IMG/VR virus record: IMGVR_UViG_3300045988_139374
Span: 64,001 to 128,000 of that record
Direction: 5' to 3' (one strand)
DNA length: 64,000 bases
From: a virus
The position numbers were made by a program, and so were the translations under genes. This document shows, in pieces, positions 11,835 to 56,977 of this stretch (position 1 is the stretch's first letter; every line of letters begins with the position of its first letter). The notes below the pieces were generated by a model that did not search any database, was not told the origin of the DNA, and worked only from the letters and a program-made list of their open reading frames with translations.

Positions 11835-11869
11835 ACTTTTTACTTAGAAGTCGAATTGATAAAAGATTA

Positions 11870-13231: not shown

Positions 13232-13315
13232 ATTGTTTTAACCTCGCTTAACTGAAATTATTAACGGCAAATATCCATCGATCTGTAATGGATAATGGAT
13301 TATTAGAATGTTTTT

Positions 13316-13358
13316 CTTAAAAATAAATGATCCAGTAGAGAATGTTCTCTACTGGATC
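13316..13358 (-). terminator. intrinsic terminator GATCCAGTAGAGAA/TTCTCTACTGGATC
   Basis: 14-bp perfect stem with a T-run on the minus strand. Confidence 0.75.
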
Positions 13359-13420
13359 TTAATTCACTTAGAATTTACGCAACAGGCAAAGCTTCATATA
13401 CACCAAAACTACAACTAAAA

Positions 13421-14803
13421 TTACTTGACAGTAACAGTAGAGGTCTTCTTGGTGACAACGGGAGTGATGGTCTCCGTAGCAACAGTAATAGTACCATTGG
13501 GAGCCTGTGCATCCTCGGTAGTAGCAACAGTAGGAGTGACAGACTTCTTGGTGCCAGTAAAGGCAGCAGTGAAGGTAGGCTGAGTAACAATAGCTGCAGT
13601 AGTCTCGGTAGCAATAGTAGTACCCAGAACAGCACCAGTACCAGTGAAGGTAGCCTCACCATTGTACTCTGCCTTAGCAGTAGCACCAGTTGCAACTGCA
13701 ACAGTAGAGGTACCAAAGGTGGGCAGTGCACCAGACAGCTTCGGAGCAGTGTAGGTAACTGCACCAGCAGCGGTGACAGCAGCAGCATAGAATGCAGCAT
13801 CATCAGTAGCAGTGGTATAGCTCAGACTCAGAGACTCCTCAGTCTTATCAACACTGAACTTAACACCCTTCTGAACGAAAGATGCAGTAGCATCAGCAGC
13901 CTTCTCAACCTTGCCATCAGTCATAGTATAACCAGTACCAGCATCGGTAACAGTTGCAACATCAGCAGTGTTCAGGGTAACAGATGCATTCAGAGCAGGC
14001 AGAGCAACCTTACCAGCAGGTGTATAGTTTGCAGTGTGAGTCTCATCAGCAGCAGTAGCAGCGATAGTAACACTAGCAGTCTTTTCGTAAGTTGCAGCTG
14101 CATTTGTGTCCTGAGTCACAGTAACAGCGCCAGCAGGAGTAACATCCAGAGCAGAGTAAGTCTTAGGAACTGCAACAGTAGTACCATCCAGAGTATACTC
14201 GCCAGGCTTAGCAGTGGTCAGATCAGCGATCTTGTCGAAGACCTCAACAGTGCCAGCTGCAGTATCCTTATGAGACAGAGCCTTCAGGTTCAGAGCCGTG
14301 GGGCCTTCCAGCTCCTCAGCAGTGATATTATCCTGCAGATCAATACCAGCAATGGTAGTGGTCTTTGCAACATAAGTCTTAGCAGCAGTAGCAACAGTCA
14401 GGTGAGTAGACTGGTCACCCAGCTCTTCCCAAGCAGTGCCATTGTAAATATACTCCTTAGAGTTATCCTTCATGACAACAACGTCACCGGAAACAGGCTC
14501 AGCAACAGCAGCAGCAATTGCCTCCAGATCAGTCTGGCCCTCAGTACGATTAATAACGCCACGGAAGTGCATTGCACCTTCCAGAGATGCAACCTTCTTC
14601 TTAACGTATGCTGCAACTGCACCTTCAGTAGGCAGGTTAACGCCTTCCTCGGTCAGCTCAACAGACACGTCCTTATAAACGGCGTCATGGAAACCTTCAA
14701 CAACCTTACGAAGGTCGGCATCCTTAACGAAATAGACTTCAGAACCGACTGTAATCTTCTTAAGGGTATTGGCATTATCATAAGTAGGATTAATAGCAGC
14801 CAT
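13421..14803 (-). CDS. fibre-like structural protein, Ala/Thr-rich
   Basis: 460 aa with RBS AAAGGAG. The C-terminal 300 aa are dominated by T/A/V/G beta-strand-like low-complexity sequence. GC-richer codon usage. Confidence 0.6.
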   Translation of the reverse strand: MAAINPTYDNANTLKKITVGSEVYFVKDADLRKVVEGFHDAVYKDVSVELTEEGVNLPTEGAVAAYVKKKVASLEGAMHFRGVINRTEGQTDLEAIAAAVAEPVSGDVVVMKDNSKEYIYNGTAWEELGDQSTHLTVATAAKTYVAKTTTIAGIDLQDNITAEELEGPTALNLKALSHKDTAAGTVEVFDKIADLTTAKPGEYTLDGTTVAVPKTYSALDVTPAGAVTVTQDTNAAATYEKTASVTIAATAADETHTANYTPAGKVALPALNASVTLNTADVATVTDAGTGYTMTDGKVEKAADATASFVQKGVKFSVDKTEESLSLSYTTATDDAAFYAAAVTAAGAVTYTAPKLSGALPTFGTSTVAVATGATAKAEYNGEATFTGTGAVLGTTIATETTAAIVTQPTFTAAFTGTKKSVTPTVATTEDAQAPNGTITVATETITPVVTKKTSTVTVK

Positions 14804-14877
14804 TGAAATTATTCTCCTTTAATTAATATTTTTGTGATAAATAATTTAAACGAGATATCAAAAAAAAATACTATTAC

Positions 14878-15645
14878 TTATCCGACAGAGAATCCATCTT
14901 TGAAAATCAAAGATTCATCAGGACCTTTAGTAACAGTAAATTTTTTATTAATTTCATCAGTGATAGACTTTTGATTCATTGTACCATCAGTCTGATCACC
15001 GAGAGCACCATATAGTTTCATTACGCCAGGTACAATAGAAGTTGCTAGAGGCGCTTTATTAATTTGTTCGAATTTCTTCGTATCAGGTTTATATTCGTAT
15101 ACAAATGTACTAGGAATATCAATGTATAGTTTATAGTCATAACCAACAAGAGATTCCTTATAAGTATTATCTGTATAGAATTTACCCTCATGAAGATATC
15201 CATGACAAATTAATCCACCATTAGAGAATTTTACTTTACTCAGAGGAATAGATTCGTCAGCAAAAGATTCAAAGTTAATAGTTACAGTTCCATCTTCCTG
15301 AGTTTCCATTCCAGTACCGAGCTTAATAGCTCCGTACTTATCAGCAGCAGCTGCAGGAATATCAACGATTGCATCATTGATAGGAAGCATTTCACCATTA
15401 ATAGTGATAGCATCAATCTTAGCAGAATTGACTATAGTAAATTTACCTGTATCTGTAGCTCCAATTTGTTCTTGAGTTCTAGACTTATCATAAATATACA
15501 AAAGTCCATTCTCTTTACAAATTGTAAAATACTTCTCAGGCATTAGATTATCATTTACAGATCTCATTTCTTGCTTCGTCATTAATAGACGAGCATCAAC
15601 AGGATCACGTGTAGATAGTCTAAATCCTTGGATGACATCAATCAT
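14878..15645 (-). CDS. fibre/baseplate-associated protein
   Basis: 255 aa. The motif ATSIVPGVMKLYGALGDQTDG resembles the AxxxxxGxVKL motif common in fibre proteins. Confidence 0.5.
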   Translation of the reverse strand: MIDVIQGFRLSTRDPVDARLLMTKQEMRSVNDNLMPEKYFTICKENGLLYIYDKSRTQEQIGATDTGKFTIVNSAKIDAITINGEMLPINDAIVDIPAAAADKYGAIKLGTGMETQEDGTVTINFESFADESIPLSKVKFSNGGLICHGYLHEGKFYTDNTYKESLVGYDYKLYIDIPSTFVYEYKPDTKKFEQINKAPLATSIVPGVMKLYGALGDQTDGTMNQKSITDEINKKFTVTKGPDESLIFKDGFSVG

Positions 15646-15668
15646 CCTATCTCCTCCTTTCTACTAAA

Positions 15669-17750
15669 TTAATCAGTAAAAGCAAAAGAAAGTTTAAATT
15701 TATTGATAGTAAGAGATTCACTAGTATACCAGACATTGAAATCAGTTTCAGTACCCGGATCCCAATAAACCTTCTTCTCCCAACCATTGATTTGTTCAAA
15801 TCCATTCGGATCTTTGATAGATTGAATATCTCCTAGATCTTTTCTATAAGCAAATACCAGATGCTGATCATTTGCGGTATATTTATGAGAAGTACCTTCA
15901 GTGATCAGAGTCTTATCTTCAATTTCTTCCTTCTCCAAGTTATCGATATTGGTAGGAATAGAATCAGAGACACCGAAATAAACGCACTTAACAGGATCCG
16001 GAGTATCAGGAGCAATGATCATGTTCATAAACTCATCAAATGTAGTTCCCTTAGGAATTACTTGACCTTGCTTCAAAGCACCAATAGGAACGATAACAGT
16101 AATATCTTCATTGATAGATGCTTCAGCAATAGAGCTAATGACATTATTCTCATCAATAGTAATATTCTTACCAGGAGTCAGCTTATCTTGCTTAGTCTTC
16201 AGCTGATCATTTAGATACTTATTAACCAGCGGAGAAACAACATCTTCCAGATGTTCATTCAAGTAATCAGTAACCTGATCTCCAGCCATGATATTAATGT
16301 AAGTAGCTAGATCAATAGGATAACTTACAGACAACCAAGCATACTTATCATCTAGAGTAATATCAGTTTCTCTATCATAAGCATGAAGTTTCTTATACTG
16401 ACTCTGAACTTTAGAATCAAAAGGTTCAAACTTACCTAGAGTGGTAAATTGAACTTTAGCGCCCATGTCAAGTTCACCAGTAGAAGAAATCCAGTCGCCC
16501 AGAATAGTTTCTCCATCATAAGAGTCAATATATTCAACTCTACGGAAAACACCAACTTCTCCATCCTTGACCATAATACAGTCAGCAACTAGCTTATCTC
16601 CCTTAACAGTGAGATTAGGCTTAGCAGCTTCAGTCTTAGTAGGAACAGCTCTCAAAACAACTGGTTCTTTAAAGATCAGAGTCTGATCTTCAGGTTCAGA
16701 AGGAGAAGTAATATCAATCCTCTTTAGATTAACACTCTTAAATCTCTTAATATCGGTATATCCAAAAATACGAAGGTCAATAGGGCCGATGACAGTATTC
16801 AGCAGTTCAGGATTCTGACCCATAAAGAAATTGGTAACCGCTACAGAGTTACCTCTTGCAAGCATTGCACCAAACTCTTCTTCATCACCAGTAAATCCAT
16901 TTTCTACTGCATATTCATAAGCAGACTTACCATCGTCACCAGGATTACCCTGCTTTCCAGGATCGCCCTTGTCTCCCTTAGTGCCAGCAGCAATTTTTCC
17001 TAGATACTGATAACCAGTAATGGTCTCCTCAATATTAGAATTATTCTGGCAGCACTTGCAAGTACACTTACTTACAGTAGAATCGCCAGTTCTAATATAT
17101 AGATCAGAAACAGGATCATTCAAAACAGCCACAAACTTGCCACGAGGAATAGTATTCTTCTTAGCTTCTGCTTCTTCAATAGATTCAAAGACGCAATAGA
17201 CTTCGAAATTAGCAGCTTCTCCCTTTTCGCCCTTAAGAGATGCTAGCCATTCATCTTCTGTTCCTTCATATCCCATAGCTACTGCACATTCATATGCAGA
17301 AGGACCTTGGGATCCAGTAGCAGCTTTCCAAGTAATACCATCAAGGCTATACTGAAATACACCAGCTTCATTTTCTCTAACAAGAGTAATCTTCTGACCA
17401 TCGTTTTCAACACTACATACAGGATTACTAATAGTGTCAGATGTAGCAAGAATAGTGATATCCAGAACATCACTGGGTTGAACATAGATAACCTTACCAG
17501 AATATTCCTCAGATCCGTCAATCTGAAGATAGGCACTAGTTCCCATTGCTCCAAGAGAGGAATTATAATTAACACCAATCTTAGATACAATGCCAGTAAT
17601 GACATTCTTTTCACCATTTAGCTTATAGAAACATTCAACTTTGTCACCAGTTTTTACAGTGACAATTTTAGAAACTCCACTATCAAAGGTTAGTGAAAAC
17701 CTCAGATTAGGGAGAATGGTATATTTATTGTCAAGCAACATGGCCATCAA
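15669..17750 (-). CDS. tail fibre protein with short collagen-like segment
   Basis: 693 aa. Contains GDKGDPGKQGNPGDDGKSAYEYAVENGFTGDEEEF and a second SAYECAVAMGYEGTEDEWLASLKGEKGE unit, both typical of Gram-positive phage fibres. Confidence 0.7.
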   Translation of the reverse strand: MMAMLLDNKYTILPNLRFSLTFDSGVSKIVTVKTGDKVECFYKLNGEKNVITGIVSKIGVNYNSSLGAMGTSAYLQIDGSEEYSGKVIYVQPSDVLDITILATSDTISNPVCSVENDGQKITLVRENEAGVFQYSLDGITWKAATGSQGPSAYECAVAMGYEGTEDEWLASLKGEKGEAANFEVYCVFESIEEAEAKKNTIPRGKFVAVLNDPVSDLYIRTGDSTVSKCTCKCCQNNSNIEETITGYQYLGKIAAGTKGDKGDPGKQGNPGDDGKSAYEYAVENGFTGDEEEFGAMLARGNSVAVTNFFMGQNPELLNTVIGPIDLRIFGYTDIKRFKSVNLKRIDITSPSEPEDQTLIFKEPVVLRAVPTKTEAAKPNLTVKGDKLVADCIMVKDGEVGVFRRVEYIDSYDGETILGDWISSTGELDMGAKVQFTTLGKFEPFDSKVQSQYKKLHAYDRETDITLDDKYAWLSVSYPIDLATYINIMAGDQVTDYLNEHLEDVVSPLVNKYLNDQLKTKQDKLTPGKNITIDENNVISSIAEASINEDITVIVPIGALKQGQVIPKGTTFDEFMNMIIAPDTPDPVKCVYFGVSDSIPTNIDNLEKEEIEDKTLITEGTSHKYTANDQHLVFAYRKDLGDIQSIKDPNGFEQINGWEKKVYWDPGTETDFNVWYTSESLTINKFKLSFAFTD

Positions 17751-24225: not shown

Positions 24226-26246
24226 GTACGACTAATTTCATAAGGGAACTATGTAGGATCCCAACCGAAGGCGGTGCAGTTGGAGCTGGTAAAAGATTCG
24301 AACTAAATCGTGGTAACTTAGCCATGGCATATATGTTCGTTTATAATATTAACCAATTTGTAGAATTTCCTCGACAGCATGGTAAAACTGTTAGCGCCCT
24401 TTGTTGGTATCTTTGGGTTTTTAATTTCGGTGCAACAAATACTAGAATAATGTTTGCTAATAAGAAGCATGAAGACTCTAAAGCAAACTTGAGAACCATG
24501 AAGAATCTAAGAGCTGCCTTACCAGAATATTTGCGTATGGAAGCTCAGTTAGATAGAGATGGTAAACAAATACGTGCTCCAAATACAGCAGAAACATTAC
24601 AGAATCCTATAAATAGAAACTTGATTACCACTCTACCTGGTGCTAGAACTCCGGCTCTAGCAGAAGGTGCAGGACGTGGTGCTACAGTTGCAATTCAATA
24701 TTATGATGAGTTTGCTTTCTTGCCTTATAATGATATTGTATATACTGCTGCTATGCCTGCATTCTCTAAAGCATCTGAGAACGCTAAGTCTAATGGATCT
24801 CCTTATGGAGTATTGATTACTACTACTCCTGGAGACTTGACTACTAGAGAAGGTCAATTTGCTAATCATGTTAGATTGAATGGTACTGAATGGAATGAAA
24901 GTTTTTATGACCTAAGTTATGATGATCTTAAGAAAGTCATTGATGCTAATACAGATTCTAACTTCATGCATATTAGATATACTTATCAAATGCTTGGTAA
25001 TGGTACTGAGTATTTTGATCGCATGGTTAAGGATCTGCAGAAAGACTGGGTTAAGATTCGTCGTGAGGTTCTACTAGAATGGGCTAAGACTGCTGATAAC
25101 AGTCCTTTTAATAGAGAAGATTTGGATATTATCGGAGCTCAAGTAAAGCAGGAACCTAGAAGTATTTTGAGATTTGGTAAAGCTGGACAATTCGTAATGA
25201 AGATTTGGGATACTATACCTATGAATAGTATGTATCCATTCATTATCGGCGTTGACGTTTCTTCTGGTATACATAAAGACTCGTCTGCTATTACAGTTAT
25301 TGATTCTCAAACTACTAAAGTCATTGCTACATTTAAATGTAACTTTATTACGATGCCAGAATTGGCTGATATGATATATCAGTTTACAACTACTTATGCA
25401 AAGAATGCTATTATAAATATCGAAAACAATGGAGGTTTTGGAAGTTCTGTTCTACAGATGCTTATTAAAACTTCTATTAAAAAGAATCTCTATTATGAAA
25501 TTAAAGATCGTATAGATGAAGAGCAATTTGATGGAATGACAGTCAAGCGTAGACCTAAGAAATGTAAAGTCTATGGCTCTACTTCTGGAAAGAATAAACG
25601 TAATCAGCTTATTGAATTGCTGCATCAAAGAGTTCAGCATCATAGAGATAAATTTAATAGTAAAGATATTTATGATGAACTTTGCACAATGGTTGTTAAG
25701 CCTAATGGTAAAGTAGAGCATGCAGACGATGCACATGATGACTTGGTATTCTCTTATCTTTGGGCTTTGTATGTTTTCTATTATGGAGAAGATCTTGCTA
25801 CAAGATTTCATATTATGAAGACAGAGATCTATACTGATGATCATTATGATGAAACTTCTTATAGTCTAGAAGAAGAATATGGTGAAGAAGGAGAAAAACT
25901 AGATCCTAGTGTATTTGCTGATGATGCAGATGCTACTACTCATATGATAAATGATCAGCTCGATTATTTGAGCAAATCTAAGCGTATGAGTATGGAAGAT
26001 TTCCATCTTGCTCAATTAAATGAAGATGAGAAATCTCTGGAAAGAATCAGAAAAACTACAATAGGAAGAAAAGCTATCTCTGATGCTTATCATATTCCTG
26101 AAGATTATTTGGAGAAGCAAGAAAATAATGGATATACAGATATTAGTGCAGATCTGAATAAAATTTGGTATGGAGATAATTCTAAGAATCCTACTAACCC
26201 AACTTTAGCAGGAAACTTAAGTGATCTATTTAATAGAATAAATTAA
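24226..26246 (+). CDS. terL: terminase large subunit, exon 2
   Basis: The frame is open from 24207. Walker A-like EFPRQHGKTVS, Walker B-like IQYYDEFAF, nuclease-type IIGVDVSSG and AHDDLVFS are present. Confidence 0.8.
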
Positions 26247-26251
26247 ATTTT

Positions 26252-26290
26252 AGAGGTAGAGATTTAATCTCTACCTCTATTTTATTTTTC
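26252..26290 (+). terminator. intrinsic terminator AGAGGTAGAGAT/ATCTCTACCTCT + T-run
   Basis: 12-bp stem followed by ATTTTATTTTT. Confidence 0.8.
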
Positions 26291-26335
26291 AATTAGATAT
26301 AATAAATATGAATAGATAGGTATACACTATCTATA
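26291..26335 (+). promoter_or_regulatory. promoter-like motif AATTAGATATAATAA-ata-TGA plus hairpin
   Basis: Matches the repeated box. Hairpin ATAGATAG/CTATCTAT at 26313..26335. Confidence 0.55.
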
Positions 26336-26361
26336 ATCGTCATAATAGAAAGGAATAAAAT

Positions 26362-27504
26362 ATGAAAGAATTATTAATCGAAGGAAAATATGCTACTGCA
26401 AAGGTATTTACAGTAGACAATGAGAAGGATGCAATTGATCAGCATGCTAAAGCACAGATTAAAATGATCTGCGATGATGAAGTATCTAAGGATGCTATCA
26501 TTCGAGTTATGCCTGATGTCCATGCTGGAAAAGTTGGTCCTATTGGTCTTACAATGAAATTAAATCATTGTAGAATCATTCCTAATCTTCTTGGTAATGA
26601 TCTTGGATGTGGAGTTAGCATTTTCAAGATCCATCCTGGGAAGAAACTTACTACATCTGATTTTAATAAATTGGATAAAGTAATTAGAGAGAATATTCCT
26701 GTAAATCTTGCAAGAGGGCCTAGGGATTTATATGGATTTGGTGTGATCAATGCTTTAGGATTTAATACTCCTATACATTCTGATAAGCTGACTCTCTGTT
26801 ATGGAACTCTTGGAAATGGTAATCATTTCATTGAGATCGATATGGATGAGCATGGAGAATATTATCTTACTATTCATACCGGTAGTAGATCTATTGGCCC
26901 TGTTATTAATGATTATTTTAATAGAAAGGGTCAAGAAGAACTCAAATTAAAAGGAATCAATGTTCCTTATGAAATGACATATGTAGAAGATATGTTATAT
27001 GTCCAATATGTAGATGATGTTCGAAAAGCAACTGAATTTGCAAGATTGAATAGAAATAGAATTAGATCTATCATTTGCAGAAAGATGAAATGGGATTCAG
27101 AAATTGAATTTAATGCTCCTCATAATACAATTTCTGAAAAGCATTGCCTCTGTAAAGGAGCAGCATGCGAATTTGAAATGGAGAATAATATCTATATTCC
27201 TATCAATATGAAAGATGGCATTCTCTATGGAGAATTAAATGCAAAGAATAGTGATGAATGGAATTATTCTCTTCCTCATGGTTCCGGCAGATTAATCAAA
27301 AGAAGCGAAGTTAAAAACTCTGTTACTCTTAATATGTTTAAGAAGGAAATGGATGGAGTATTCTCTACATCTGTTTCTAAGGATACACTTGATGAGTCTC
27401 CTTTTGCATATAGAAGAATTGATGAAATCAGAGAAGCTGTATCTGATATTGTCAATGTAAAAGGTGTACTTACTCCTGTGTATAATTTCAAAGGAGGAAA
27501 TTAA
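26362..27504 (+). CDS. rtcB: RtcB-family RNA 3'-phosphate ligase
   Basis: MPDVHAGK, GNDLGCGVS, GTLGNGNHFIEID, HTGSRSIG, APHNTI and LPHGSGRL match the RtcB metal- and GTP-binding motifs. At 380 aa it is of the short RtcB2-like size. Confidence 0.9.
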   Translation: MKELLIEGKYATAKVFTVDNEKDAIDQHAKAQIKMICDDEVSKDAIIRVMPDVHAGKVGPIGLTMKLNHCRIIPNLLGNDLGCGVSIFKIHPGKKLTTSDFNKLDKVIRENIPVNLARGPRDLYGFGVINALGFNTPIHSDKLTLCYGTLGNGNHFIEIDMDEHGEYYLTIHTGSRSIGPVINDYFNRKGQEELKLKGINVPYEMTYVEDMLYVQYVDDVRKATEFARLNRNRIRSIICRKMKWDSEIEFNAPHNTISEKHCLCKGAACEFEMENNIYIPINMKDGILYGELNAKNSDEWNYSLPHGSGRLIKRSEVKNSVTLNMFKKEMDGVFSTSVSKDTLDESPFAYRRIDEIREAVSDIVNVKGVLTPVYNFKGGN

Positions 27505-28112
27505 TGCTAATTCAAATTAGTTCTGGTATCGGAGCTCCTGCAGAATGTGAGCGAGCAGTTTATCTCTTTTCACAGAAGCTCATCTCTGAACTTGATGCTA
27601 CTATTGTCAAGAAGAAAGAATCTGGATTTCATAAAGGATGCTATAAATCTTGCATTCTGAAAACTGATAAGCAAATTAATTCCATTGAATACAATGGCAC
27701 TATTCAGTGGATCTGTAAAAGTCCTTTTAGAATTGGATGGCCTAGAAAGAATTGGTTCATTGATGTGAGCACCATTGATGAAGCTCAATTTATCGATCCT
27801 AATGTTGAAGGGCAAATCTCTTATGAAACTTTTCGTAGTGGAGGAAATGGAGGACAGAATGTAAATAAAGTAGAAACTGCAGTAAGAGGAGTTCATAAGC
27901 CTACTGGGATTTCTGTAGTTTCTATGAAGGAAAGATCTCAGCTTCAGAATAAGAAGGATGTAGAAAATCGCATTTCTGAAAGAATTGTAGATATTAATAA
28001 AAATAGTGAAGCAATTCAAAAGAATTCTGAATGGAAAGAGATCAATAAAATTGTACGTGGCAATCCTATTAGAGTATATAAGGGACCAAATTTTAAAAGA
28101 ATCGATAAATAA
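27504..28112 (+). CDS. prfH: peptide chain release factor H-like protein (GGQ domain)
   Basis: Matches PrfH as I recall it along its full length: MLIQISSGIGAPAEC, GTIQWICKSPFR...RKNWF, YETFRSGGNGGQNVNKVETAVRGVH, ERSQLQNK, RGNPIRVY. The start overlaps the rtcB stop (TAATG). Confidence 0.85.
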   Translation: MLIQISSGIGAPAECERAVYLFSQKLISELDATIVKKKESGFHKGCYKSCILKTDKQINSIEYNGTIQWICKSPFRIGWPRKNWFIDVSTIDEAQFIDPNVEGQISYETFRSGGNGGQNVNKVETAVRGVHKPTGISVVSMKERSQLQNKKDVENRISERIVDINKNSEAIQKNSEWKEINKIVRGNPIRVYKGPNFKRIDK

Positions 28113-28143
28113 AAATTCATATAAAAAGAAAGGAAGTTTTATT

Positions 28144-28524
28144 ATGGATTACCGTTTTAATTATGATGATGCTATCGTCAATTATCAAGTTGTAGAAATT
28201 AATGGCATCAAGTGTTTATTTACAGAGAGCCGTCTTCATAGATTCCCACTCCCTGGATTCATCAAAATGTATGATCTTAGACATGGAGATAATCCCAGTC
28301 GTCCTAAAACTCTTGAACCTGCTGTTGTAGTAAATTTCTTTGGCACTATTATCACTGATCACACTTTCAATCTTAATGAAAGTAAAGCAACTGGTAATCC
28401 TGTTGATAAATTTATGCGCCTCAACAGAAACAACTTTAAATATGCATATGAAGACGATGTATGCGGCACTGATGCATGCAAATGGATCAGTGATCATAGT
28501 GTTGAAAAAGACTATGATGAATAA
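28144..28524 (+). CDS. hypothetical protein, third gene of the rtcB-prfH transcription unit
   Basis: I prefer the ATG at 28144 with an AGAAAGGAAG RBS over the track's upstream start. The motif LFTESRL...PGFIKMYDLRHGDNPSRP...VVVNFFGTIIT resembles a small domain I recall from conjugative-element polyvalent proteins, but I am not sure of that recollection. Confidence 0.5.
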   Translation: MDYRFNYDDAIVNYQVVEINGIKCLFTESRLHRFPLPGFIKMYDLRHGDNPSRPKTLEPAVVVNFFGTIITDHTFNLNESKATGNPVDKFMRLNRNNFKYAYEDDVCGTDACKWISDHSVEKDYDE

Positions 28525-28532
28525 ATAAAAAG

Positions 28533-28571
28533 TCCGGGTAGGATCACTCCTACCCGGATTTATTTTTTTTT
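28533..28571. terminator. bidirectional terminator TCCGGGTAGGA/TCCTACCCGGA + T9
   Basis: 11-bp stem flanked by an A-run and a T-run, between convergent genes. Confidence 0.8.
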
Positions 28572-28581: not shown

Positions 28582-28974
28582 CTAAGATTTTATATAAACC
28601 ATATTAGTGTATCTACAATTCTTAGGATCACCATCTATATTAGAAGCATGATAACCCCTCTCTAAATAACTACTTGCATTAGCAATATAGCTACAAGCTA
28701 CCAAGTCTTTAATATAAAATGGTTCTAATCTCCATTTTCCATCTTTCACGCATGAAAGATTTACATATGGAATATTATTCTTAAAAGCCCAAGAAATATA
28801 AGAATCATTAATTACAGAATATACTTGTCCAGTCTTAGTAATACAATATAAATTAGGAAGAAGACCAGGATATGAGAGAATCTTAGCTTCTTCCATGCTA
28901 TCATGACTACTGAATCCTCTAACAGTAATCATGTTTTGCATCAGATCATAGTATCCATCTTTAGAAGAGTCCAT
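28582..28974 (-). CDS. free-standing HNH_3/NUMOD4-like endonuclease homolog, possibly inactive
   Basis: TKTGQVYSVINDS...YVNLSCVKDGKWRLEPFYIKDLVACSYIAN...ASNIDGDPKNCRYTNMVY follows the HNH_3 layout. However, the usual His before IDG is Asn. Confidence 0.45.
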   Translation of the reverse strand: MDSSKDGYYDLMQNMITVRGFSSHDSMEEAKILSYPGLLPNLYCITKTGQVYSVINDSYISWAFKNNIPYVNLSCVKDGKWRLEPFYIKDLVACSYIANASSYLERGYHASNIDGDPKNCRYTNMVYIKS

Positions 28975-29000: not shown

Positions 29001-30236
29001 TTACTTATATCCAAAAGCTTTCATTGTATCAATTTCTGTAAGCTGAACGGTAGAATCATGGAATGCTTTCATAGACTTATTCTTATAAATAGAGAAAACT
29101 TGCATAAGAGTAAGTCCAACATTTTTAATTCCAAGTTTCTTATAGAAATTACCAGCACATGCATTACAGGGTTTTTCATGGGGGCAAAGATAAGCCATTC
29201 TCATCTTAACTTTCTTACCAATAAATTGATCTCGGTTTTGAGAATTAAGCTCAATTAGCTTACCATTGCTTCCTATAATATTGTTATACATATACTGGTT
29301 TACATTTTTAGGGGTTAGCTCTATTGTAATATGTCTATCAGTATGGCAATCAGTACCATCTTCATCCAAAATCAAGTCTTGATATGCCATAGTAGTAAGG
29401 TTCTCTAGATAGCCGCCACCTTCAGTTTTCTTACCACGAGAATATGCACCTTCTATGCCAGAATTAGAATATAGAGAATATTCTTCTCTCTTAATTCCTT
29501 CCATATAGTTAGAAGTAGCAATACGAAATTCTTGTTTAGAATCAGGGTTGGGATCTCTAGTAGCGCCTTTCCAGATAAACATATTTTTGAAATTATTATT
29601 AATATTAGATCTTGCTCCAGAAATAAAAGAATCCATTGCTGGATCATCTTTCAAAAGCTCCTTAGCATAAGCAATGAGTTCATCCTCGATTTGCTTAGCT
29701 ACAACAGTATCTCCAGCTTCAAGCTCCTTTTGATGCTCCTTAATTAGTTTATCCTTCAGTTTATCAATTTGAACACTACATGTCAAAAGATCTTCAGAAT
29801 AATTTGGAGCTAACACAGTAACAAATTGCATTGCAAACTGAGTCTTCATCAAATAATTCTTAAGGGTTTGAACAGAGATTCGATCTTCCATTAAAGCATA
29901 TGAAAGATCTTGGTTCATATCTTCCAACTGGCCACCATTGATAGTTTTATTTACATATCCAAACAATTCAAAAAGATCTTGCTCAATGAACCATTTGTTG
30001 AAAATCCAAATACCTACAGTGGTAGTAAAAGTATTTTTATTTTTGTGGTTTTCTGGACCATAATATCCAGGAGGAACCTTTAGAATATCATATGGATGGC
30101 ATTTACATTTACCATCATATTCACCAAATAGTCCAAAAATAAAAGAAGATGTGATTTTATCCTCTGTAATATTAAGGAGCTCTGCTTTAAGAGTAGGATC
30201 TGTAACTTCTGTAGATACTCTCTTCTTAACGGCCAT
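29001..30236 (-). CDS. RNA polymerase beta-prime-like subunit, C-terminal half (bridge helix to trigger loop)
   Basis: TTVGIWIFN, ISGARSNINNNFKNMFIWKGATRDP (compare ADSGARGS..QLAGMRGLM), NYMEGIKREEYSLYSNSG...KKTEGGGYLENL (compare [27 protein letters not shown].SGYL), CNACAGNFY and GLTLMQVF...MKAFHDS (compare GEPGTQLTMRTFH). Confidence 0.8.
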   Translation of the reverse strand: MAVKKRVSTEVTDPTLKAELLNITEDKITSSFIFGLFGEYDGKCKCHPYDILKVPPGYYGPENHKNKNTFTTTVGIWIFNKWFIEQDLFELFGYVNKTINGGQLEDMNQDLSYALMEDRISVQTLKNYLMKTQFAMQFVTVLAPNYSEDLLTCSVQIDKLKDKLIKEHQKELEAGDTVVAKQIEDELIAYAKELLKDDPAMDSFISGARSNINNNFKNMFIWKGATRDPNPDSKQEFRIATSNYMEGIKREEYSLYSNSGIEGAYSRGKKTEGGGYLENLTTMAYQDLILDEDGTDCHTDRHITIELTPKNVNQYMYNNIIGSNGKLIELNSQNRDQFIGKKVKMRMAYLCPHEKPCNACAGNFYKKLGIKNVGLTLMQVFSIYKNKSMKAFHDSTVQLTEIDTMKAFGYK

Positions 30237-35722: not shown

Positions 35723-35798
35723 GCAGCTGTAGTTCAATTGGTAGAGCGTCTGCCTTCCACGCAGAATGTTGCGAGTTCGAGTCTCGTTAGCTGCTCCA
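35723..35798 (+). tRNA. tRNA-Gly (anticodon TCC), CCA encoded
   Basis: Hand-folded cloverleaf: acceptor GCAGCTG/TAGCTGC, D GTTC/GAGC, anticodon stem TCTGC/GCAGA with loop CTTCCAC, T GCGAG-TTCGAGT-CTCGT. Confidence 0.85.
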
Positions 35799-35939
35799 TT
35801 AGAATTTAGGTTTTGGCTTTCCCTAAATTCTAAAAATTCCATCTTTTCGTCAACGTTCGTATTTTTTCACATCCATCCGCATTTGTTCCTTTCTGTTTTT
35901 CTCTCGGCTAGTACTCTGGCTAGTCGAGAGTTTTTATGA

Positions 35940-36010
35940 TGCGCCATCGCCAAGCGGTAAGGCAGGGGACTTTGACTCCCCCATCGTAGGTTCGACTCCT
36001 GCTGGCGCAA
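35940..36010 (+). tRNA. tRNA-Gln (anticodon TTG)
   Basis: Acceptor TGCGCCA/TGGCGCA, D region TCGCCAAGCGGTAAGGCA (as in bacterial tRNA-Gln), anticodon stem GGGGA/TCCCC with loop CTTTGAC, T GTAGG-TTCGACT-CCTGC. Confidence 0.85.
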
Positions 36011-36015
36011 TTTAT

Positions 36016-36104
36016 GCTGGAGTAGCTCAGCTGGCCAGAGCGGATGTTTTGTAAGCATCGTGCCTTTACGGATCTCGCAGGTTCGAATCCTGTCTCCAGC
36101 TCCA
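36016..36104 (+). tRNA. tRNA-like gene, anticodon TGT (Thr) with atypical 17-nt variable region, CCA encoded
   Basis: Acceptor GCTGGAG/CTCCAGC, D GCTC/GAGC, anticodon stem GATGT/GCATC with loop TTTGTAA, T GCAGG-TTCGAAT-CCTGT. However, 17 nt (GTGCCTTTACGGATCTC) lie between the anticodon and T arms. Confidence 0.6.
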
Positions 36105-50911: not shown

Positions 50912-53900
50912 ATGGTCGTACTTGAAGATCTTAAAGATTTGCTTATGTATAAGAAGCAATTCTTCCTTCCTGTGAATATGAAGGATAAACGTCATGGATC
51001 TGCAATCATGCTCATGACCCCAAATTATCAGTCATCTATGCTAGCAATGACTGAACCTTATACACTAAATAGACGTACCTTTGAGTCTTATTATATCGAA
51101 AAAACTATTACAAGATATATTCAACAACAGACTGAATCTGTTGTTGAAATTACTGATCCTGGTGAGTATCTTTTTGAAGTTGAATTGACTTCTAAAGAGA
51201 GAAAAGAACTTGATGATAGTGAATTCGGCATTCCTGAACAAAGAAGATATCCTCTGAATGATGAATCTCATGTACTAGCTGCTATTAGATTCTTTAATCA
51301 TGTAGAAAAGGAATATGAAGCAGAACTTGCTAAGAATATCATTAAAAAGATTAAAGAATATGATATGGCTGACAAAGTTCATGTAGGAGATGGAAATAGA
51401 TTTAAGCCCTATTGGGAAAAATCTGGGCTTGCTAATAAATCTACTAATGAATCTGGTCAAATTGTTAAATCTGCTCCTGATCCTGAGGAATATAAGAAAA
51501 CTCTTATTAATGCAGTAAAGGATACTCTTCATCTTAAGGGATATAAATGTGGAATTCATAAAGATGATAGATGGGGTACTGATGAATTTATCAATGGTGT
51601 GAATTCTCTTTATATTGGCAGATATGATGATACAGAAATTAAAGATGTAGTCAATCAAATCAAAGCTGTTATTGGTCCTGGATATAAAGTATGTGAAGAC
51701 GATTTTAATACTGTCTTTATTGATGGTCCTAATAAAGCAATGAGAGAATTCACTGAAGATGAATATTTCAATGAGTTTAATATTAAGAGCTTTATTAGTG
51801 GTACTGCTATATCTTCTGCTAATAAGAAGATGAATAAGGATTATCGTCTTCTAACCTTTACTGGATATGAAAGAGATATCAATGTTGTGCAGAAGTATAT
51901 TGATCAAGAATATATTAAGGCATGCATGGCAAAAGTCAAACAAAAGATGCCTTATGATAAGATCAATATTATTTGCTGTGGTGATGGATCTAAGCCTGAA
52001 GAATTTACTCCTACTTCTGTTCTGGTATATACTCCTGAGGCTTTTAAACATGCCGGTGGAAAGTTTGGATATGGAGACTATATTAAATATATTCTCCAGC
52101 TATATGCAGTTTATTGCATCAAGATGCCTATTGGAAGCAAATATGAAAGAGTTCTAGATAGTCTTGCAGAACCTGCTGCTATTCTATTTTCTGGAGTTGC
52201 AGCAAAAGAAATTGCTAAGAAAACTAATGATGATCAATTTACTGTAGAACGAGTATTCCAATATATTATTGATAAAGATGGCATTGATACACTACTTAAA
52301 ATTCTCAGATACAATGCAACTGCTGCTGTTATGAAATATGCAGCAGAATATGGAAAGATTTATTATCCTATTAATAGATCTCTCTTTGTAGAAATAGCTG
52401 AAGAGAATGAAGAATATCTAAAATCTCTTCAAGAAGATACTACTATTCCTGTTCCTAATCCTATGCCTGATAGTATTAGAAAGCTTGGAAATACTGCAGA
52501 ACGCATTAAGAGAAGGCTTAAGTCTAAGACTATTTATAAGCTTAATAAACTTAAAAGAGATCTTGAAAAAGGAACTGGAGATTCTGATAATCCTGGATAC
52601 ACTATTCAAAGTCTTGATGTAGGTATTCCTACTCCTTCTAATGGATCTTCTGCTCCTAGTGAATCTTTCAGTCTTTCTAAACTGAATCTCTGGTCTCAAG
52701 GAGATTATGTAAATGAAAATGGATTTGTATATCTATTTGAAGATTCTACAAAATATGATATGCAACTTCGTAAAGCTCTTTATAGAGATAGATTGAAAAA
52801 TGATAAAGCTGTTATTCAGCTATATAAGAAGGTAAAAGCTGATATGCCTATCATCAGATATACCTTTGTTAAAATGAATAGATACAATAACCGTAATCTA
52901 TTCTATGATCTATCTTATTACAATGAGTCTTTCTTTAGAAATATGGCTATGATCAATGATAGTGATCGTAAAAATATTATGAGACTCTTTAAAACCTATA
53001 TTGAGCTTATGGAACGTCTACTAAATGATGATTCTCTAAGTGGATATTCTAAGAAAACTGTTTTTATCCCTGTACTAGATTGGAGACATAATAACTCTCT
53101 AAAGATGTGGATGTATAAAGAGGATATTAATCCTATTTCTGCCATCTATTATTATATGAGAAATAATCCTAAAGAACTCTCTAAACTATTTGGAGATAAA
53201 GACGTTGTTTTTCTTGGAGCTAAAAATTACTTCAAAGTAAACTTTGCTAAGGATGATTTTAGTAAGAGTGGAAATGTAACTAAATTCCTAAATCTTATTA
53301 AAAGAATTGTAGCCCTTGGGTATAATTCTCCTGCAGATCCTGATCCTGAAGGTGAGCTTGAAGATTCTCCTAAGGGAATTGCTATGGCTATCATTGATAA
53401 GGTTGAACAATCTAAAAATGTTCAAATCAATGATATCTCTAAACTAGATAATCTTTCTAATGATCAGAATCTTTATAATGATCAACCTGCAAAGGCAAGT
53501 ATGATTCCTGATGAAACTGCTGTGAAAAAGAAAGTAGTAGATACTGCATATAAAGTATCTGATGATGTGGTCACTACTACTTATGCAACAAATGTCAAAA
53601 ATAAGGTTGTTAAAGTTTCTGTAGATAGAAAGACTGTTACTAAAGAAGAGAATAAAGCAGCCACTGGAGTATCTGGTACCAAATCTGTAAATAGTACTTC
53701 TTCTAAAGAAAAGAAGGATGCTATTGTTGACTCTGTTGCTCAGGCAGCAAGAAATTCTGACAGTGTAGATACTGCTATGAATAAACTTGATGACGATCAG
53801 CAGTTTAAAGATATGGTCAATGCTATTCAGAATGATGATGAAGAGAATGTCAGAGTTGATAAGTCTCAAGCATCTGCTGTTATTGCTAAGCAAGAAGAAT

Positions 53901-56900
53901 TTCATAAGAAAGACGTTGAAGGAAAATCTGTTCAGGATCTTCTAAATGTGGATACCGCAGAAAAAGAATTGCCTGAAACTAAGTTAAAAGTATCTTCTAT
54001 CAATGACGATTGGCAACATATGACTTTCATGAACTTTGATAAAGATTATGATCCTGATAGTGATATTGTAAAGATGCTCGATGCTATGCAGCATTGGACT
54101 TATCCTATTGCTGTTACAAATGTTAGTGTTAAAGATAATTCTACATCTGAAGACATTGTAAATCTATGGACCATTGAATGTATAGATTATAAGAAAACTA
54201 AGTTTACACTTAAGGTTGATATTCCTAAATTTATCAATGGATCCAACTTCCTAAAACTCCGTGGCAATGAAAAGACACTGATGATTCAATCTGCACTTCT
54301 ACCCATTATCAAAACTGGTTTGGGAGAGTGCCAAATTATTGGTTCTGGCGGATATAACAAGATCTTTGTCAGAAGATTTGGTTCTCGTAAGGGTCAATCT
54401 AATGCCTATGCTAATAAACTCATTAGAGCTATTAGCAAGTATTGTGATAAGCATGATGATATTAAGTATGTAGCTGGTGATAATACTAAGGTTTGTACTA
54501 AATATGAATTGCCTATCGACTATATTGACCTTGCCCAAGTATTTAACTCTATTGAATCTGCTGGTCTAAAGATTTTCTTTAATCAAGATGAACTTAGATC
54601 TGAATATGAAGTGGATGATACTAAGGGCATTCCTATTGGTGTATTTACTCAATTTGATTCTAAGGATAAGACTGGTAAGGATGTAATCATTTACTATGAC
54701 GGAACTTCTAGTCCTACTCTAGCTGGTTATATCACTACTTTGCTATTTTATAGATCTCAGGAGTTTATGGAATTCTATAATAGTCTAAAGATTACTGGTA
54801 CTCGCTGTACTTATTCTAAGGCTAGTATTTTGAATTGTGAGATTCCTGTTATTCTAATTTGCTCTTATCTTGAGGGTCTGATTAAGACCATGAATAAGGC
54901 TGGAATTAAGTATGAATTCGTACAAGAGCTAAATAAGGATATCAAATATAGTACTTATCAGGATTATATTGAATTCTCTGATGGCTATCTTGTATATGAA
55001 GCAAATTACTCTTCTAGCATGCTTATGAATGGTCTTAAGGAAAATGATACTTCTTCTTATTCCATCAAGGATGTAAATAATAGAAGAATGTATCTAGAGT
55101 TCCTTGAGACTTATACTAATAGTCTAAATTCTGATGGTCTAGAAAACTCTTATGACTGTATGATTGATCCTATTACTAAGGAAATTCTTGAGAGATTCAA
55201 GCTTCCTAGTGATTACGTTGGTATTCTAATCCATGCAAGTAATATGCTTGCAGATAATAAGTACATACGTCATATCGATCAAGGTGGTCGTAGATGGCGT
55301 CGTAAAGAACTTATCGCAGGTTACTTCTATAAAGCTCTTACTACTTCTTATCAGGATTATGCTAACCAGAATCGTCATACTCGTAAGAGAACAAAGATGA
55401 CGATTAAGCAATCTGCTGTTATCGATCTAATTGTTTCTAAAGACCCTGCTACCTCTGACCTTTCTATTAACAATGCTCTAAATGACGTTGAATGCTCAAA
55501 CTCTGTTACTAACAAAGGTCTAGTTGGTATGAATGTTGCTCGTGGTTATACTATTGCTACACGTGGATATGATGATTCTATGCTTAATCTATTAGGCATG
55601 GATACTGGATTCTCTGGCAATGTTGGTATTAATCGTCAAGCAACTGTTAATGCTAATATTGAAGGTGGAAGAGGATTTGTTAAAACTATTGATGGTAATA
55701 CAGATAAATTGTCTTCTGCTGCTTCTTTTACTATGACAGAAGCTGTTACTCCTCTTGGTACTACTCATGATGATCCTCCTAGATCTCTGATGACTTATGT
55801 CCAGACTTCTAAGCACATGATTCGTTGTGATAATAACGATCCTACTCTACTTACTACTGGTGCGGATGAAGCATTGCCTTATCTGACTTCTGATATCTTT
55901 GCTTATAAAGCTAAGGAAGATGGTAAGATTGTAGAATTGGTACAAGAAGGTTTTGGTAAGAGAAACTATATCGTTGTAGAATATAAGAGTGGTAAACATG
56001 AATTTATCAATCTTTCTGAAGAGGTTAAGAAAAACTCTGATGGTGGATATTATGTGCCTATGAAACTTGATACAGATATGAGTGTTGGTAAGACTTTCAA
56101 AGCTGGTCAAATTCTTGCATATGATAAGCTATCTTTCTCTAAATCTCTTGGCGAATCTGGTAATCTAGCTGCTAATATGGGCACTCTTGCAAAGATTGCT
56201 ATTATTAATACTGATGAAGGATTCGAAGACTCTGCAATGATTACTGAATCTTTTGCCAATAAACTAGGAACTCAAGTTATTCAAGGAATTGAAACTAGAC
56301 TAGAGAAAGGTTCTAATATTCAGGTTAGTAAATATCTTGGAGATCAAGTTATGGAAGGTGATACTCTATTCACTTTCCAAGCTGACTTTGATGACGAAGC
56401 TATGAATAGCCTGCTCAAGAATCTAGCAATGGATGCTGGTGAAATTTCTGAATTGGGCAGAAATCCTGTTAAATCTAAATATACTGGTATCGTATGTGAT
56501 ATTCAAATCTATCGTACATGCGATATTGATACTTGCTCCGAATCTCTACGTAAATTCATTGGACTTTATGAGAAGAGAGTTAAAGATATCAAAAAAGTAT
56601 ATGATCAGTACGGAATTGATTCTGCCATTCTTCCTAAGACTGGTAAAGTTCCTGAAGTTGGCAAAACTAAAAATCTAGATGATTCTGTTCTAGTAATCTA
56701 TTATATCAAATATACAGATACTATGTCTGCTGGTGATAAGATTACTTTCTATTCTGCAAATAAGGGTATCATTAAGAAGATTATTCCTAAGGATGTAGAA
56801 CCTTATACTGCTTTCAGACCTAATGAGCATATTGATAGTTTCATGTCTCTAAGCTCTATCTCTGGACGTATGACTTGTTCTATTCCTCTATTTGCAGCAA

Positions 56901-56977
56901 CTTCTAAACTTATGGTAGAATTGGATAGATCCGTTAAAGATCTAGCTGGAATTCCTTACGACGAGAGTCAATTGTAA
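50912..56977 (+). CDS. RNA polymerase beta-like subunit fused to an N-terminal extension of about 1040 aa
   Basis: From about nt 54030: VDIPKFINGSNFLKLRGNEKTLMIQS (compare IPLMT..G.FIINGTERVIVSQ), RRWRRKELIAGYFYKAL, NKGLVGMNVARGYTIATRGYDDSMLNLLGMDTGFSGNVGINRQ, HDDPPRSLMTYVQTSKHMI (compare [20 protein letters not shown]), EGFEDSAMITESF (compare GYNFEDSI), GDKITFYSANKGIIKKIIP (compare GDKMAGRHGNKGV) and SGRMTCS. Confidence 0.85.
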   Translation: MVVLEDLKDLLMYKKQFFLPVNMKDKRHGSAIMLMTPNYQSSMLAMTEPYTLNRRTFESYYIEKTITRYIQQQTESVVEITDPGEYLFEVELTSKERKELDDSEFGIPEQRRYPLNDESHVLAAIRFFNHVEKEYEAELAKNIIKKIKEYDMADKVHVGDGNRFKPYWEKSGLANKSTNESGQIVKSAPDPEEYKKTLINAVKDTLHLKGYKCGIHKDDRWGTDEFINGVNSLYIGRYDDTEIKDVVNQIKAVIGPGYKVCEDDFNTVFIDGPNKAMREFTEDEYFNEFNIKSFISGTAISSANKKMNKDYRLLTFTGYERDINVVQKYIDQEYIKACMAKVKQKMPYDKINIICCGDGSKPEEFTPTSVLVYTPEAFKHAGGKFGYGDYIKYILQLYAVYCIKMPIGSKYERVLDSLAEPAAILFSGVAAKEIAKKTNDDQFTVERVFQYIIDKDGIDTLLKILRYNATAAVMKYAAEYGKIYYPINRSLFVEIAEENEEYLKSLQEDTTIPVPNPMPDSIRKLGNTAERIKRRLKSKTIYKLNKLKRDLEKGTGDSDNPGYTIQSLDVGIPTPSNGSSAPSESFSLSKLNLWSQGDYVNENGFVYLFEDSTKYDMQLRKALYRDRLKNDKAVIQLYKKVKADMPIIRYTFVKMNRYNNRNLFYDLSYYNESFFRNMAMINDSDRKNIMRLFKTYIELMERLLNDDSLSGYSKKTVFIPVLDWRHNNSLKMWMYKEDINPISAIYYYMRNNPKELSKLFGDKDVVFLGAKNYFKVNFAKDDFSKSGNVTKFLNLIKRIVALGYNSPADPDPEGELEDSPKGIAMAIIDKVEQSKNVQINDISKLDNLSNDQNLYNDQPAKASMIPDETAVKKKVVDTAYKVSDDVVTTTYATNVKNKVVKVSVDRKTVTKEENKAATGVSGTKSVNSTSSKEKKDAIVDSVAQAARNSDSVDTAMNKLDDDQQFKDMVNAIQNDDEENVRVDKSQASAVIAKQEEFHKKDVEGKSVQDLLNVDTAEKELPETKLKVSSINDDWQHMTFMNFDKDYDPDSDIVKMLDAMQHWTYPIAVTNVSVKDNSTSEDIVNLWTIECIDYKKTKFTLKVDIPKFINGSNFLKLRGNEKTLMIQSALLPIIKTGLGECQIIGSGGYNKIFVRRFGSRKGQSNAYANKLIRAISKYCDKHDDIKYVAGDNTKVCTKYELPIDYIDLAQVFNSIESAGLKIFFNQDELRSEYEVDDTKGIPIGVFTQFDSKDKTGKDVIIYYDGTSSPTLAGYITTLLFYRSQEFMEFYNSLKITGTRCTYSKASILNCEIPVILICSYLEGLIKTMNKAGIKYEFVQELNKDIKYSTYQDYIEFSDGYLVYEANYSSSMLMNGLKENDTSSYSIKDVNNRRMYLEFLETYTNSLNSDGLENSYDCMIDPITKEILERFKLPSDYVGILIHASNMLADNKYIRHIDQGGRRWRRKELIAGYFYKALTTSYQDYANQNRHTRKRTKMTIKQSAVIDLIVSKDPATSDLSINNALNDVECSNSVTNKGLVGMNVARGYTIATRGYDDSMLNLLGMDTGFSGNVGINRQATVNANIEGGRGFVKTIDGNTDKLSSAASFTMTEAVTPLGTTHDDPPRSLMTYVQTSKHMIRCDNNDPTLLTTGADEALPYLTSDIFAYKAKEDGKIVELVQEGFGKRNYIVVEYKSGKHEFINLSEEVKKNSDGGYYVPMKLDTDMSVGKTFKAGQILAYDKLSFSKSLGESGNLAANMGTLAKIAIINTDEGFEDSAMITESFANKLGTQVIQGIETRLEKGSNIQVSKYLGDQVMEGDTLFTFQADFDDEAMNSLLKNLAMDAGEISELGRNPVKSKYTGIVCDIQIYRTCDIDTCSESLRKFIGLYEKRVKDIKKVYDQYGIDSAILPKTGKVPEVGKTKNLDDSVLVIYYIKYTDTMSAGDKITFYSANKGIIKKIIPKDVEPYTAFRPNEHIDSFMSLSSISGRMTCSIPLFAATSKLMVELDRSVKDLAGIPYDESQL

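Follow-up and report, generated by a model that had tools for sequence, protein, structure and literature searches.

Why would a bacteriophage carry a release factor and an RNA ligase that, in bacteria, act together on broken ribosomes? The question is raised by a 64,000-nucleotide stretch of viral DNA (positions 64,001 to 128,000 of IMG/VR record IMGVR_UViG_3300045988_139374; here called the window). A three-gene unit on its plus strand contains rtcB (26362..27504), encoding a predicted 3'-phosphate/5'-OH RNA ligase of 380 amino acids that resembles the short RtcB proteins of Firmicutes; prfH (27504..28112), encoding a 202-amino-acid release factor H of the short subfamily that has no C-terminal tail; and a gene for a 126-amino-acid protein with an LPD28 domain (28144..28524). 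We hold with moderate confidence that this module would be a phage-borne version of the bacterial PrfH-RtcB rescue-then-repair system, inherited vertically in a family of jumbo phages that resemble AR9 and PBS1.

To our knowledge, PrfH-RtcB is the only known system that reverses a cut in the decoding center of the ribosome, and it has so far been treated as a purely bacterial defense against bacteriocins. The bacterial version, composed of RtcB2 and PrfH, is known as a system that rescues and repairs ribosomes (Tian et al. 2022, PMC9304027; Maviza et al. 2026, PMC13166195), and PrfH has been stated to occur only in bacteria (Tian et al. 2022, PMC9304027). Burroughs and Aravind predicted that this bacterial system acts in biological conflicts and spreads by horizontal transfer. 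In our literature search, no paper reported a phage with PrfH or with the PrfH-RtcB pair, a passing mention in Burroughs & Aravind 2016 (NAR) being possible. The pair thus appears not to have been described on a phage so far, as the first-pass annotation of this locus had supposed.

That annotation read the second gene as PrfH along its whole length, including the GGQ loop, and the first gene as an RtcB with all of the ligase motifs. Both identifications hold. The prfH product matches NCBIfam TIGR03072 (IPR017509) with 171.1 bits against a cut-off of 166.65, residues 1-197 of the protein aligning with the entire profile (1-200 of 200). Competing profiles match the GGQ domain alone and fall far short of their cut-offs (RF2, 79 bits versus 370; RF1, 71 versus 400; ArfB, 30 versus 100), and the ArfB profile covers only residues 103-128. 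The Pfam RF-1 domain lies at residues 103-194, with the GGQ motif at G116-G117-Q118, and there is no N-terminal RF domain 1. Among solved structures, the top matches are Capnocytophaga PrfH (9mor, E = 4.7e-33) and E. coli PrfH (7sa4, E = 1.2e-26). The phage protein aligns end to end with E. coli PrfH (residues 3-201, 37% identity) and with Capnocytophaga CgPrfH (residues 5-207), whereas RF1 and RF2 structures match it on the GGQ domain only (E of 1e-13 to 1e-10).

In this profile comparison, which had been proposed as a check, the 202-amino-acid protein sorts with PrfH and not with ArfB or generic release factor fragments. We rejected ArfB on its score, on the presence of an N-terminal recognition domain and on the absence of a basic tail, and we rejected a generic release factor fragment since the PrfH profile is matched over its full length and the cut-offs of RF1 and RF2 are not reached. 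Membership in the dual-activity subfamily typified by CgPrfH was also rejected: the protein stops right after the RGNPxRxYxG block, and the C-terminal tail is absent.

The rtcB product matches Pfam PF01139 (E = 1.4e-40; 140.3 bits versus a cut-off of 27) and the large phage family phrog_1075 (E = 1.2e-88). Every catalytic residue is aligned. The essential residues of E. coli RtcB, known from mutagenesis in the Shuman laboratory (D75, C78, N167, H168, H185, R189, H281, H337, R341 and R345), have counterparts in the same order in the phage protein (D80, C83, N154, H155, H172, R176, H254, H306, R310 and R314). H306 occupies the position of the guanylylated nucleophile.

The further label of the ligase as RtcB2 did not hold at the level of sequence. 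The phage protein falls below the cut-offs of both models of PrfH-coupled ligases (TIGR03073, 84 versus 271.8 bits; NF007153, 110.9 versus 407), and it is no closer to RtcB2 than to RtcB1, being 25% identical to Salmonella RtcB2 (90 bits) and 28% identical to E. coli RtcB1 (110 bits). An RtcB encoded next to prfH on a bacterial chromosome (L011, described below) also fails both models. Therefore at least two clades of RtcB are coupled to PrfH, of which only the proteobacterial one has been studied, and TIGR03073 and NF007153 cover only part of the PrfH-coupled ligases. By its sequence, the phage ligase belongs to a Firmicutes-type clade of short RtcB proteins. The closest bacterial members of this clade are found with PrfH (L011 and L099), alone (L097 and L098) or beside a PF09414 RNA ligase (L100). 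In the last case, at positions 4001-6013 of a bacterial 147-kb contig, an RtcB of this clade is paired with the PF09414 ligase in place of PrfH. The clade thus has several alternative partners (PrfH, the PF09414 ligase, or none).

The three genes form a self-contained, coupled unit followed by a terminator, in agreement with the first description of the locus. The open reading frames are where they had been placed, all on one strand, and are flanked by two strong hairpin terminators. The stop codon of rtcB (TAA) and the start codon of prfH (ATG) share base 27504, giving a TAATG overlap, and the prfH ribosome-binding site (AAGGAGG) lies within the 3' end of rtcB. Purine-rich ribosome-binding sites also precede rtcB (AAAGGA) and the third gene (AAAGGAAG). 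The third gene begins after a gap of 31 nucleotides that contains no terminator, and it is probably co-transcribed with rtcB and prfH. The 5' boundary of the unit is a plus-strand hairpin terminator (26251..26279; a 13-bp stem with 5 GC pairs, followed by TTTTATTTTT) that lies after the upstream neighbor, the gene for the large terminase TerL (24324..26246, an open reading frame of 640 codons for amino acids). The 3' boundary, also on the plus strand, is a hairpin terminator with a T-run (28530..28571, the hairpin and T9 at 28530-28561; a 14-bp stem with 7 GC pairs, followed by ATTTTTTTTT) that can be read on both strands. Terminator-like sites are enriched in the region, with 7 found versus 1.2 expected from shuffled sequences.

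The promoter-like box that had been proposed for the unit was not confirmed. The spacer upstream of rtcB is about 80 nucleotides long and AT-rich, with two TATAAT hexamers (26296-26301 and 26332-26337). The putative promoter-like segment within it (26295..26337, plus strand) has AGATATAATAAATAT at 26295-26309 and the second hexamer at its end. Neither hexamer upstream of rtcB has a usable -35 element. Sites resembling sigma-70 promoters are not enriched in the region (16 versus 18.1 in shuffles), and neither is the motif AGATATAATAAATAT in the window (31 matches versus 25.5 expected). Two related contigs, L020 and L021, have a similar box, AGATATTATAATATT, at the same position after the hairpin.

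The unit resides on a real virus, as had been claimed. Around it, the window encodes TerL, a tail sheath, a DNA polymerase, virion proteins and RNA polymerase genes of the split beta type (minus strand, 29001..30236; and 50912..56977; families phrog_2962 and phrog_3148). The closest matches to TerL, at 29-36% identity, are in the Bacillus phages Goe21, BpSp, PBS1 and AR9, in phage S6 of Staphylococcus and in the Fusobacterium JD-Fnp phages, and the window therefore comes from an AR9/PBS1-like jumbo phage with a multisubunit RNA polymerase. Related contigs reach lengths of 160-288 kb. When 20 kb of the window were compared with INPHARED by megablast, nothing matched, so that there is no cultured relative at the nucleotide level.

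The pair is also a long-term resident of the family. One IMG/VR contig of 160 kb (L001) is from the same phage, with 97-99% amino acid identity. In L009 (103 kb), L019/L027 (136 and 288 kb), L020 and L021, rtcB and prfH are found in this same slot too, with TerL on one side and, on the other, a conserved HNH-like gene that is followed by the minus-strand RNA polymerase gene. TerL in these contigs is 67-80% identical to that of the window, and the RNA polymerase piece is 76-83% identical. The ratio of nonsynonymous to synonymous substitution rates (dN/dS) against L001 and L002 is 0.05-0.10 for rtcB, 0.08 for prfH and 0.08-0.09 for the LPD28 gene, with a similar value, 0.04, for the RNA polymerase gene. 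All three genes of the module are under purifying selection.

These observations bear on a simple objection, that bacterial DNA was mis-assembled into the phage contig, or was captured recently, and has no role in the phage. Some sequences deposited as phage do have a bacterial appearance. A tblastn search of INPHARED with PrfH gave five near-full-length matches, each of them either a short, unverified fragment or a GC-rich region of bacterial appearance (OR850930, from Salmonella, and a region of OQ572403 with a GC content of 67% are examples), and no verified phage with the pair. For the window, however, the slot between TerL and RNA polymerase is filled in independently assembled relatives from several sources. 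In addition, the module does not stand out from the phage background in GC content (0.325), its dN/dS is low, and no PrfH in the bacterial species genomes of GTDB is more than 48% identical to the phage PrfH, the best being 45-48%. We therefore rejected contamination, mis-assembly and recent capture, to which we assign almost no probability.

In the explanation that we favor, a ribonuclease active during infection would cut RNA in the A-site or decoding region of the ribosome. The cutter might be a host effector (abortive-infection, toxin-antitoxin or CRISPR-associated) or a toxin delivered by a competitor. Such a cut would stall the ribosome and leave a 5'-OH opposite a 3'-phosphate or 2',3'-cyclic phosphate. 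PrfH would then recognize the broken ribosome and release the peptide, and RtcB would re-seal the break with GTP, keeping translation going for the phage. The substrate would presumably be 16S rRNA cut between A1493 and G1494, and the pair could serve as a counter-defense, the role first proposed for it.

The recognition residues of PrfH bear on this explanation in both directions. In E. coli PrfH, the G10-P12 loop and residues R83, H85, H86, R88, K89, N90 and R189 bind the 3'-phosphate of the cleaved A1493 or contact h18 and S12 (Tian et al. 2022, PMC9304027). The phage PrfH keeps R76, R81, K82, N83 and R185 (equivalent to E. coli R83, R88, K89, N90 and R189), the G-A-P loop and the R185-G-N-P motif. 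Other features weigh against the explanation. H85 is replaced by glycine (G78), H86, the histidine that binds the 3'-phosphate, by tryptophan (W79), and G87 by proline, and the loop that sandwiches the base has a one-residue insertion. In addition, the PrfH score is just 4.5 bits over the cut-off, and the L009 orthologue, at 155.9 bits, is below it. The ligase lies outside the characterized enterobacterial RtcB2 clade, with slightly higher identity to the tRNA-repairing RtcB1, and its nearest bacterial relatives are sometimes alone or with another ligase. For these two reasons, specificity for rRNA cannot be read from the ligase itself. Two relatives, L012 and L014, have rtcB but no prfH (see below). 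Finally, our literature search found no anti-phage system that cuts the decoding center, and we know of no biochemistry for any rtcB-prfH pair of the Firmicutes type or from a phage.

The altered pocket is a property of a subclade. Almost all of the remaining PrfH proteins examined, including those of the phage relatives L019-L021, have histidine at the position of H86. The Trp-Pro pair is also present in L009, P0008 and P0017, in which the H85 position is asparagine. Since the pocket is altered at H86 and H85 and by the loop insertion, the lesion recognized by PrfH of the window subclade may differ from that recognized by the E. coli protein.

The same substitutions would also fit a PrfH that has become, by drift, a factor for general ribosome rescue or for alternative release in phage translation, similar to ArfB or CgPrfH and independent of RNA damage. 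A PrfH subfamily that rescues intact stalled ribosomes does exist (bioRxiv 10.1101/2025.01.09.632186), and huge phages are known to carry RF1, RF2, tmRNA and SmpB. However, the 202-amino-acid protein does not have the basic C-terminal tail, some 25-30 residues long, on which the dual activity of that subfamily relies, and the tight translational coupling of prfH to an RNA ligase argues for damage repair. We consider such a drift improbable.

The main rival to rescue and repair of cut ribosomes comes from the ligase and from the phages that lack prfH. RtcB might act mainly on tRNA, re-sealing tRNAs cut by host anticodon nucleases, with PrfH as an optional helper for ribosomes jammed by a cut tRNA or an empty A site. 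RNA repair by phages is established, jumbo phages being known to carry RtcB and, for ribosome rescue, the peptidyl-tRNA hydrolase PTH2, and phage RtcB has been treated as a tRNA repair enzyme (Iyer et al. 2021, PMC7824862). The ligase in the window is as close to the tRNA-repairing RtcB1 of E. coli as to RtcB2, phrog_1075 is annotated as 'tRNA splicing ligase', and in bacteria the same RtcB clade is found alone or with another RNA ligase. The H86W change and the inserted loop residue in PrfH might point to another kind of stalled ribosome as its substrate. Also, rtcB is the constant gene of the family. Two contigs, L012 (263 kb) and L014 (137 kb), keep rtcB (61-63% identical) and an LPD28-domain gene and have no prfH. 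Their TerL is 87% identical to that of the window across the ~370 N-terminal residues, beyond which it does not align in one piece, versus 67-80% in the relatives with prfH.

Thus prfH is dispensable in the phage family, and its absence from L012 and L014 looks like a secondary loss. This loss need not mean a change of substrate, since RtcB2 alone can repair cleaved ribosomes, PrfH merely speeding the repair of translating ones (Maviza et al. 2026, PMC13166195); secondary loss is consistent with that finding. Furthermore, E. coli PrfH does not act on ribosomes that are intact, and it is the cleaved 16S end around which its recognition domain is shaped (PMC9304027), most of the E. coli contact residues are kept in the phage protein, and prfH has been retained under purifying selection in several diverged branches. 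We regard repair mainly of tRNA as a serious contender that is nevertheless unlikely. In L012 and L014 (around 6001-10164) and in L009, the slot between TerL and RNA polymerase behaves as a variable island of accessory genes.

If the favored explanation is correct and the pair mends cut ribosomes, the source of the damage could still lie outside the contest between phage and host. The pair might shield the infected cell from external ribotoxins of competitors (bacteriocins, contact-dependent inhibition or LXG-type toxins) over the long cycle of a jumbo phage, and not from host immunity. The only nucleases known by experiment to cut between A1493 and G1494 are bacteriocins of the colicin E3 type and CdiA-CT toxins (PMC9304027), and, as noted, the literature search found no anti-phage system of this kind. 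The habitat is a dense one: metagenomes of the pig gut and of other guts are the source of the relatives, and the PrfH proteins in GTDB that come nearest are those of Lachnospiraceae (COE1, Enterocloster, Eisenbergiella and Blautia). The hosts of these phages are probably low-GC gut bacteria of the Lachnospiraceae/Clostridia. A shield of this kind has no direct support, however, and phage RNA-repair genes generally target intracellular effectors (PMC7824862). That several lineages of jumbo phages have the pair, repeatedly and independently, also suggests a pressure tied to infection. We think a role confined to external toxins rather doubtful, less so than a drift of PrfH into general rescue.

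A bolder proposal builds on rescue and repair in the opposite direction. The phage pair may mark ribotoxins of gut Firmicutes, yet to be discovered, that are triggered by infection and cut the decoding center. The pocket (His86 to Trp, Lys/Gly87 to Pro, and the loop insertion) would then be adapted to a broken end that differs from that made by colicin E3, in its nucleotide or in its end chemistry, and the LPD28 protein would be a new accessory of RNA repair. We put this proposal forward tentatively and consider it, too, unlikely as a whole.

The third gene was initially described only as a possible accessory. Its product matches Pfam LPD28 (PF18843) at residues 13-82 (E = 1.9e-18; 66.3 bits versus a cut-off of 27). 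LPD28 belongs to the 'large polyvalent protein-associated' domains, which are found in phages and in conjugative elements. The 239 representative relatives found at E <= 1e-3 are chiefly stand-alone proteins of 90-130 amino acids, and there was no match to the protein in PHROGs or NCBIfam. An LPD28-domain gene lies downstream of rtcB or prfH in L001, L002, L009, L012 and L014. The association is not with prfH but with rtcB, or with the variable accessory region. A fusion of the LPD28 domain to a YunG-like domain is encoded in L014, and L009 has two LPD28 paralogues, of 231 and 224 amino acids. AlphaFold2 gave an unusable model from an alignment of 10 sequences (predicted local distance difference test, pLDDT, of 41) and a confident model, with a pLDDT of 85, from an alignment of 61. 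The latter is beta-rich with a C-terminal helix, and conserved positions of the protein include R30, P37, Y43, R46 (in an RHGD motif), P54, N64 and G67. A Foldseek search of this model against PDB and BFVD found no neighbor, every E-value being greater than 1, and the predicted structure may thus represent an undescribed fold.

Where did the phages obtain the pair? On a bacterial chromosome (L011, a 1.26-Mb contig), beside smpB, rtcB and prfH have the same arrangement as in the window, and their products are 44% (RtcB) and 50.5% (PrfH) identical to those of the phage. This shared arrangement indicates that the two genes were acquired together, from an operon of the Clostridia type, and the Firmicutes lineage that carries such pairs is the likely donor. 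All members of the phage family that were examined have the insertion in the N-terminal loop of PrfH (SSG[IL]xxPxEC versus SSG-QGPxEC in bacteria). This shared insertion and the fixed genomic slot suggest one old acquisition in the family, and synteny and the single inserted residue are the whole of the case for it. Unbootstrapped neighbor-joining trees give a mixed picture. In that of PrfH, the window subclade and L019-L021 do not come out as sister groups, and that of RtcB groups the window with L009, L012, L014, L019 and L020 and sets L021 apart.

The pair extends beyond this family. A scan of IMG/VR with a PrfH alignment found about 20 viral contigs with full-length PrfH, and at least 14 distinct viral contigs have rtcB upstream of prfH, mostly adjacent (1-1.5 kb away on L022 and L030). 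L026 (292 kb) and L005/L032 (239 kb) have RNA polymerase genes of the jumbo-phage type within 5 kb of the pair and no match to the TerL or RNA polymerase of the window, and therefore represent separate jumbo-phage lineages. In L036, a UvsX-like recombinase is encoded near the pair. Another contig, L015 (246 kb, GCA_028691315.1), was binned in a metagenome-assembled genome of 'Candidatus Izemoplasmatales'. Its RtcB and PrfH are 51% and 45% identical to those of the window and a gene resembling that for baseplate gp25 lies alongside, so that this contig may be a jumbo phage. Lastly, on L004/L029 (IMG/VR, 76 kb; positions 753-2720), PrfH (TIGR03072, 178 bits) is encoded 0.8 kb from a Tpt1/KptA RNA 2'-phosphotransferase. 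Neither the ~2 kb that the contig has upstream of this PrfH nor the 5 kb downstream contains an RtcB. Judging from this arrangement, PrfH may also be coupled to a different RNA-repair chemistry.

Comparison with known systems helps to define what the phages have changed. Like the RtcB2-PrfH operon of E. coli and Salmonella (Tian 2022, PMC9304027; Maviza et al. 2022, 2026), the phage pair has rtcB followed by an overlapping or abutting prfH, a tailless PrfH of about 200 amino acids with GGQ and with R83, R88, K89, N90 and R189 kept, and an RtcB of about 380 amino acids with a full active site. Unlike that system, the phage pair is encoded by a virus and is known from sequence alone, its PrfH is only 37% identical, with H85/H86 changed to Gly/Trp and a one-residue loop insertion, its ligase is outside the enterobacterial RtcB2 clade (25% identity), and it has the additional LPD28 gene. 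The chromosomal pairs of Firmicutes (Lachnospiraceae/Clostridia), such as L011, are the closest cellular relatives and have the same arrangement, and they probably also indicate the host range. In contrast to the phage pair, they keep a His-His or His-Lys motif and have no loop insertion and no LPD28 neighbor.

Among phage systems, Pnkp and Rnl1 of T4, which act against PrrC, and the RtcB, Rnl1/2 and PTH2 of jumbo phages (PMC7824862) likewise use a phage ligase to reverse an attack by the host on the translation apparatus. In contrast to the pair in the window, the systems in that survey are understood to repair tRNA, with PTH2 in the place of a release factor that binds the ribosome, and a PrfH partner, which implies damage to rRNA or at the level of the ribosome, is not listed there. 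The best-scoring structure, CgPrfH (9mor, bioRxiv 10.1101/2025.01.09.632186), has the same two-domain core. Unlike CgPrfH, the phage protein is without the basic C-terminal tail that gives CgPrfH its activity on intact non-stop ribosomes. By sequence, then, what appears to be new is a known system in a viral setting, with an uncharacterized ligase clade, a modified recognition pocket and an extra gene.

Several features of the surrounding DNA are of separate interest. A minus-strand gene of 130 codons for amino acids just beyond the unit (28582..28974) has weak similarity to HNH endonucleases (PHROG 59, E = 1.3e-06). It is at the equivalent position in all family members, with 42-99% identity, and because of this fixed position we conclude that it is a stable resident and not a mobile homing endonuclease. 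In L001, an insertion of ~400 nucleotides (about 3542-3942) with stops in all frames splits TerL after codon ~370, whereas TerL of the window is uninterrupted. TerL of L012, L014, L019 and L021 aligns in one piece only to residue ~370. The insertion in L001 has no match in Rfam and may be a mobile insertion, such as an intron that lacks an open reading frame, for which the population is polymorphic. The window has three tRNA genes (Gly-TCC, Gln-TTG and Thr-TGT; 35723-36104), found by both ARAGORN and Rfam, and an Rfam scan of the window and L001 found only these three tRNAs. The GC content is 0.38-0.46 at 6001-16000 of the window (with its peak at 12001-14000), where tail-sheath and fibre-like genes lie, and 0.28-0.34 elsewhere. 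Long antisense open reading frames overlap the tail-sheath and fibre-like genes in the same region.

We view the phage rtcB-prfH module as a lead of fairly high interest rather than a surprise of principle. The natural change from His to Trp in the pocket and the relatives without prfH are ready-made comparisons for finding out what PrfH senses. The module also provides a handle for searches, as the hosts, probably Lachnospiraceae, should encode a matching nuclease, possibly of a new class of anti-phage effectors. The stable inheritance of the pair in several jumbo-phage lineages implies that RNA damage at the level of the ribosome would be a recurrent hazard of phage infection, and RNA repair by phages would thereby extend from tRNA to the ribosome.

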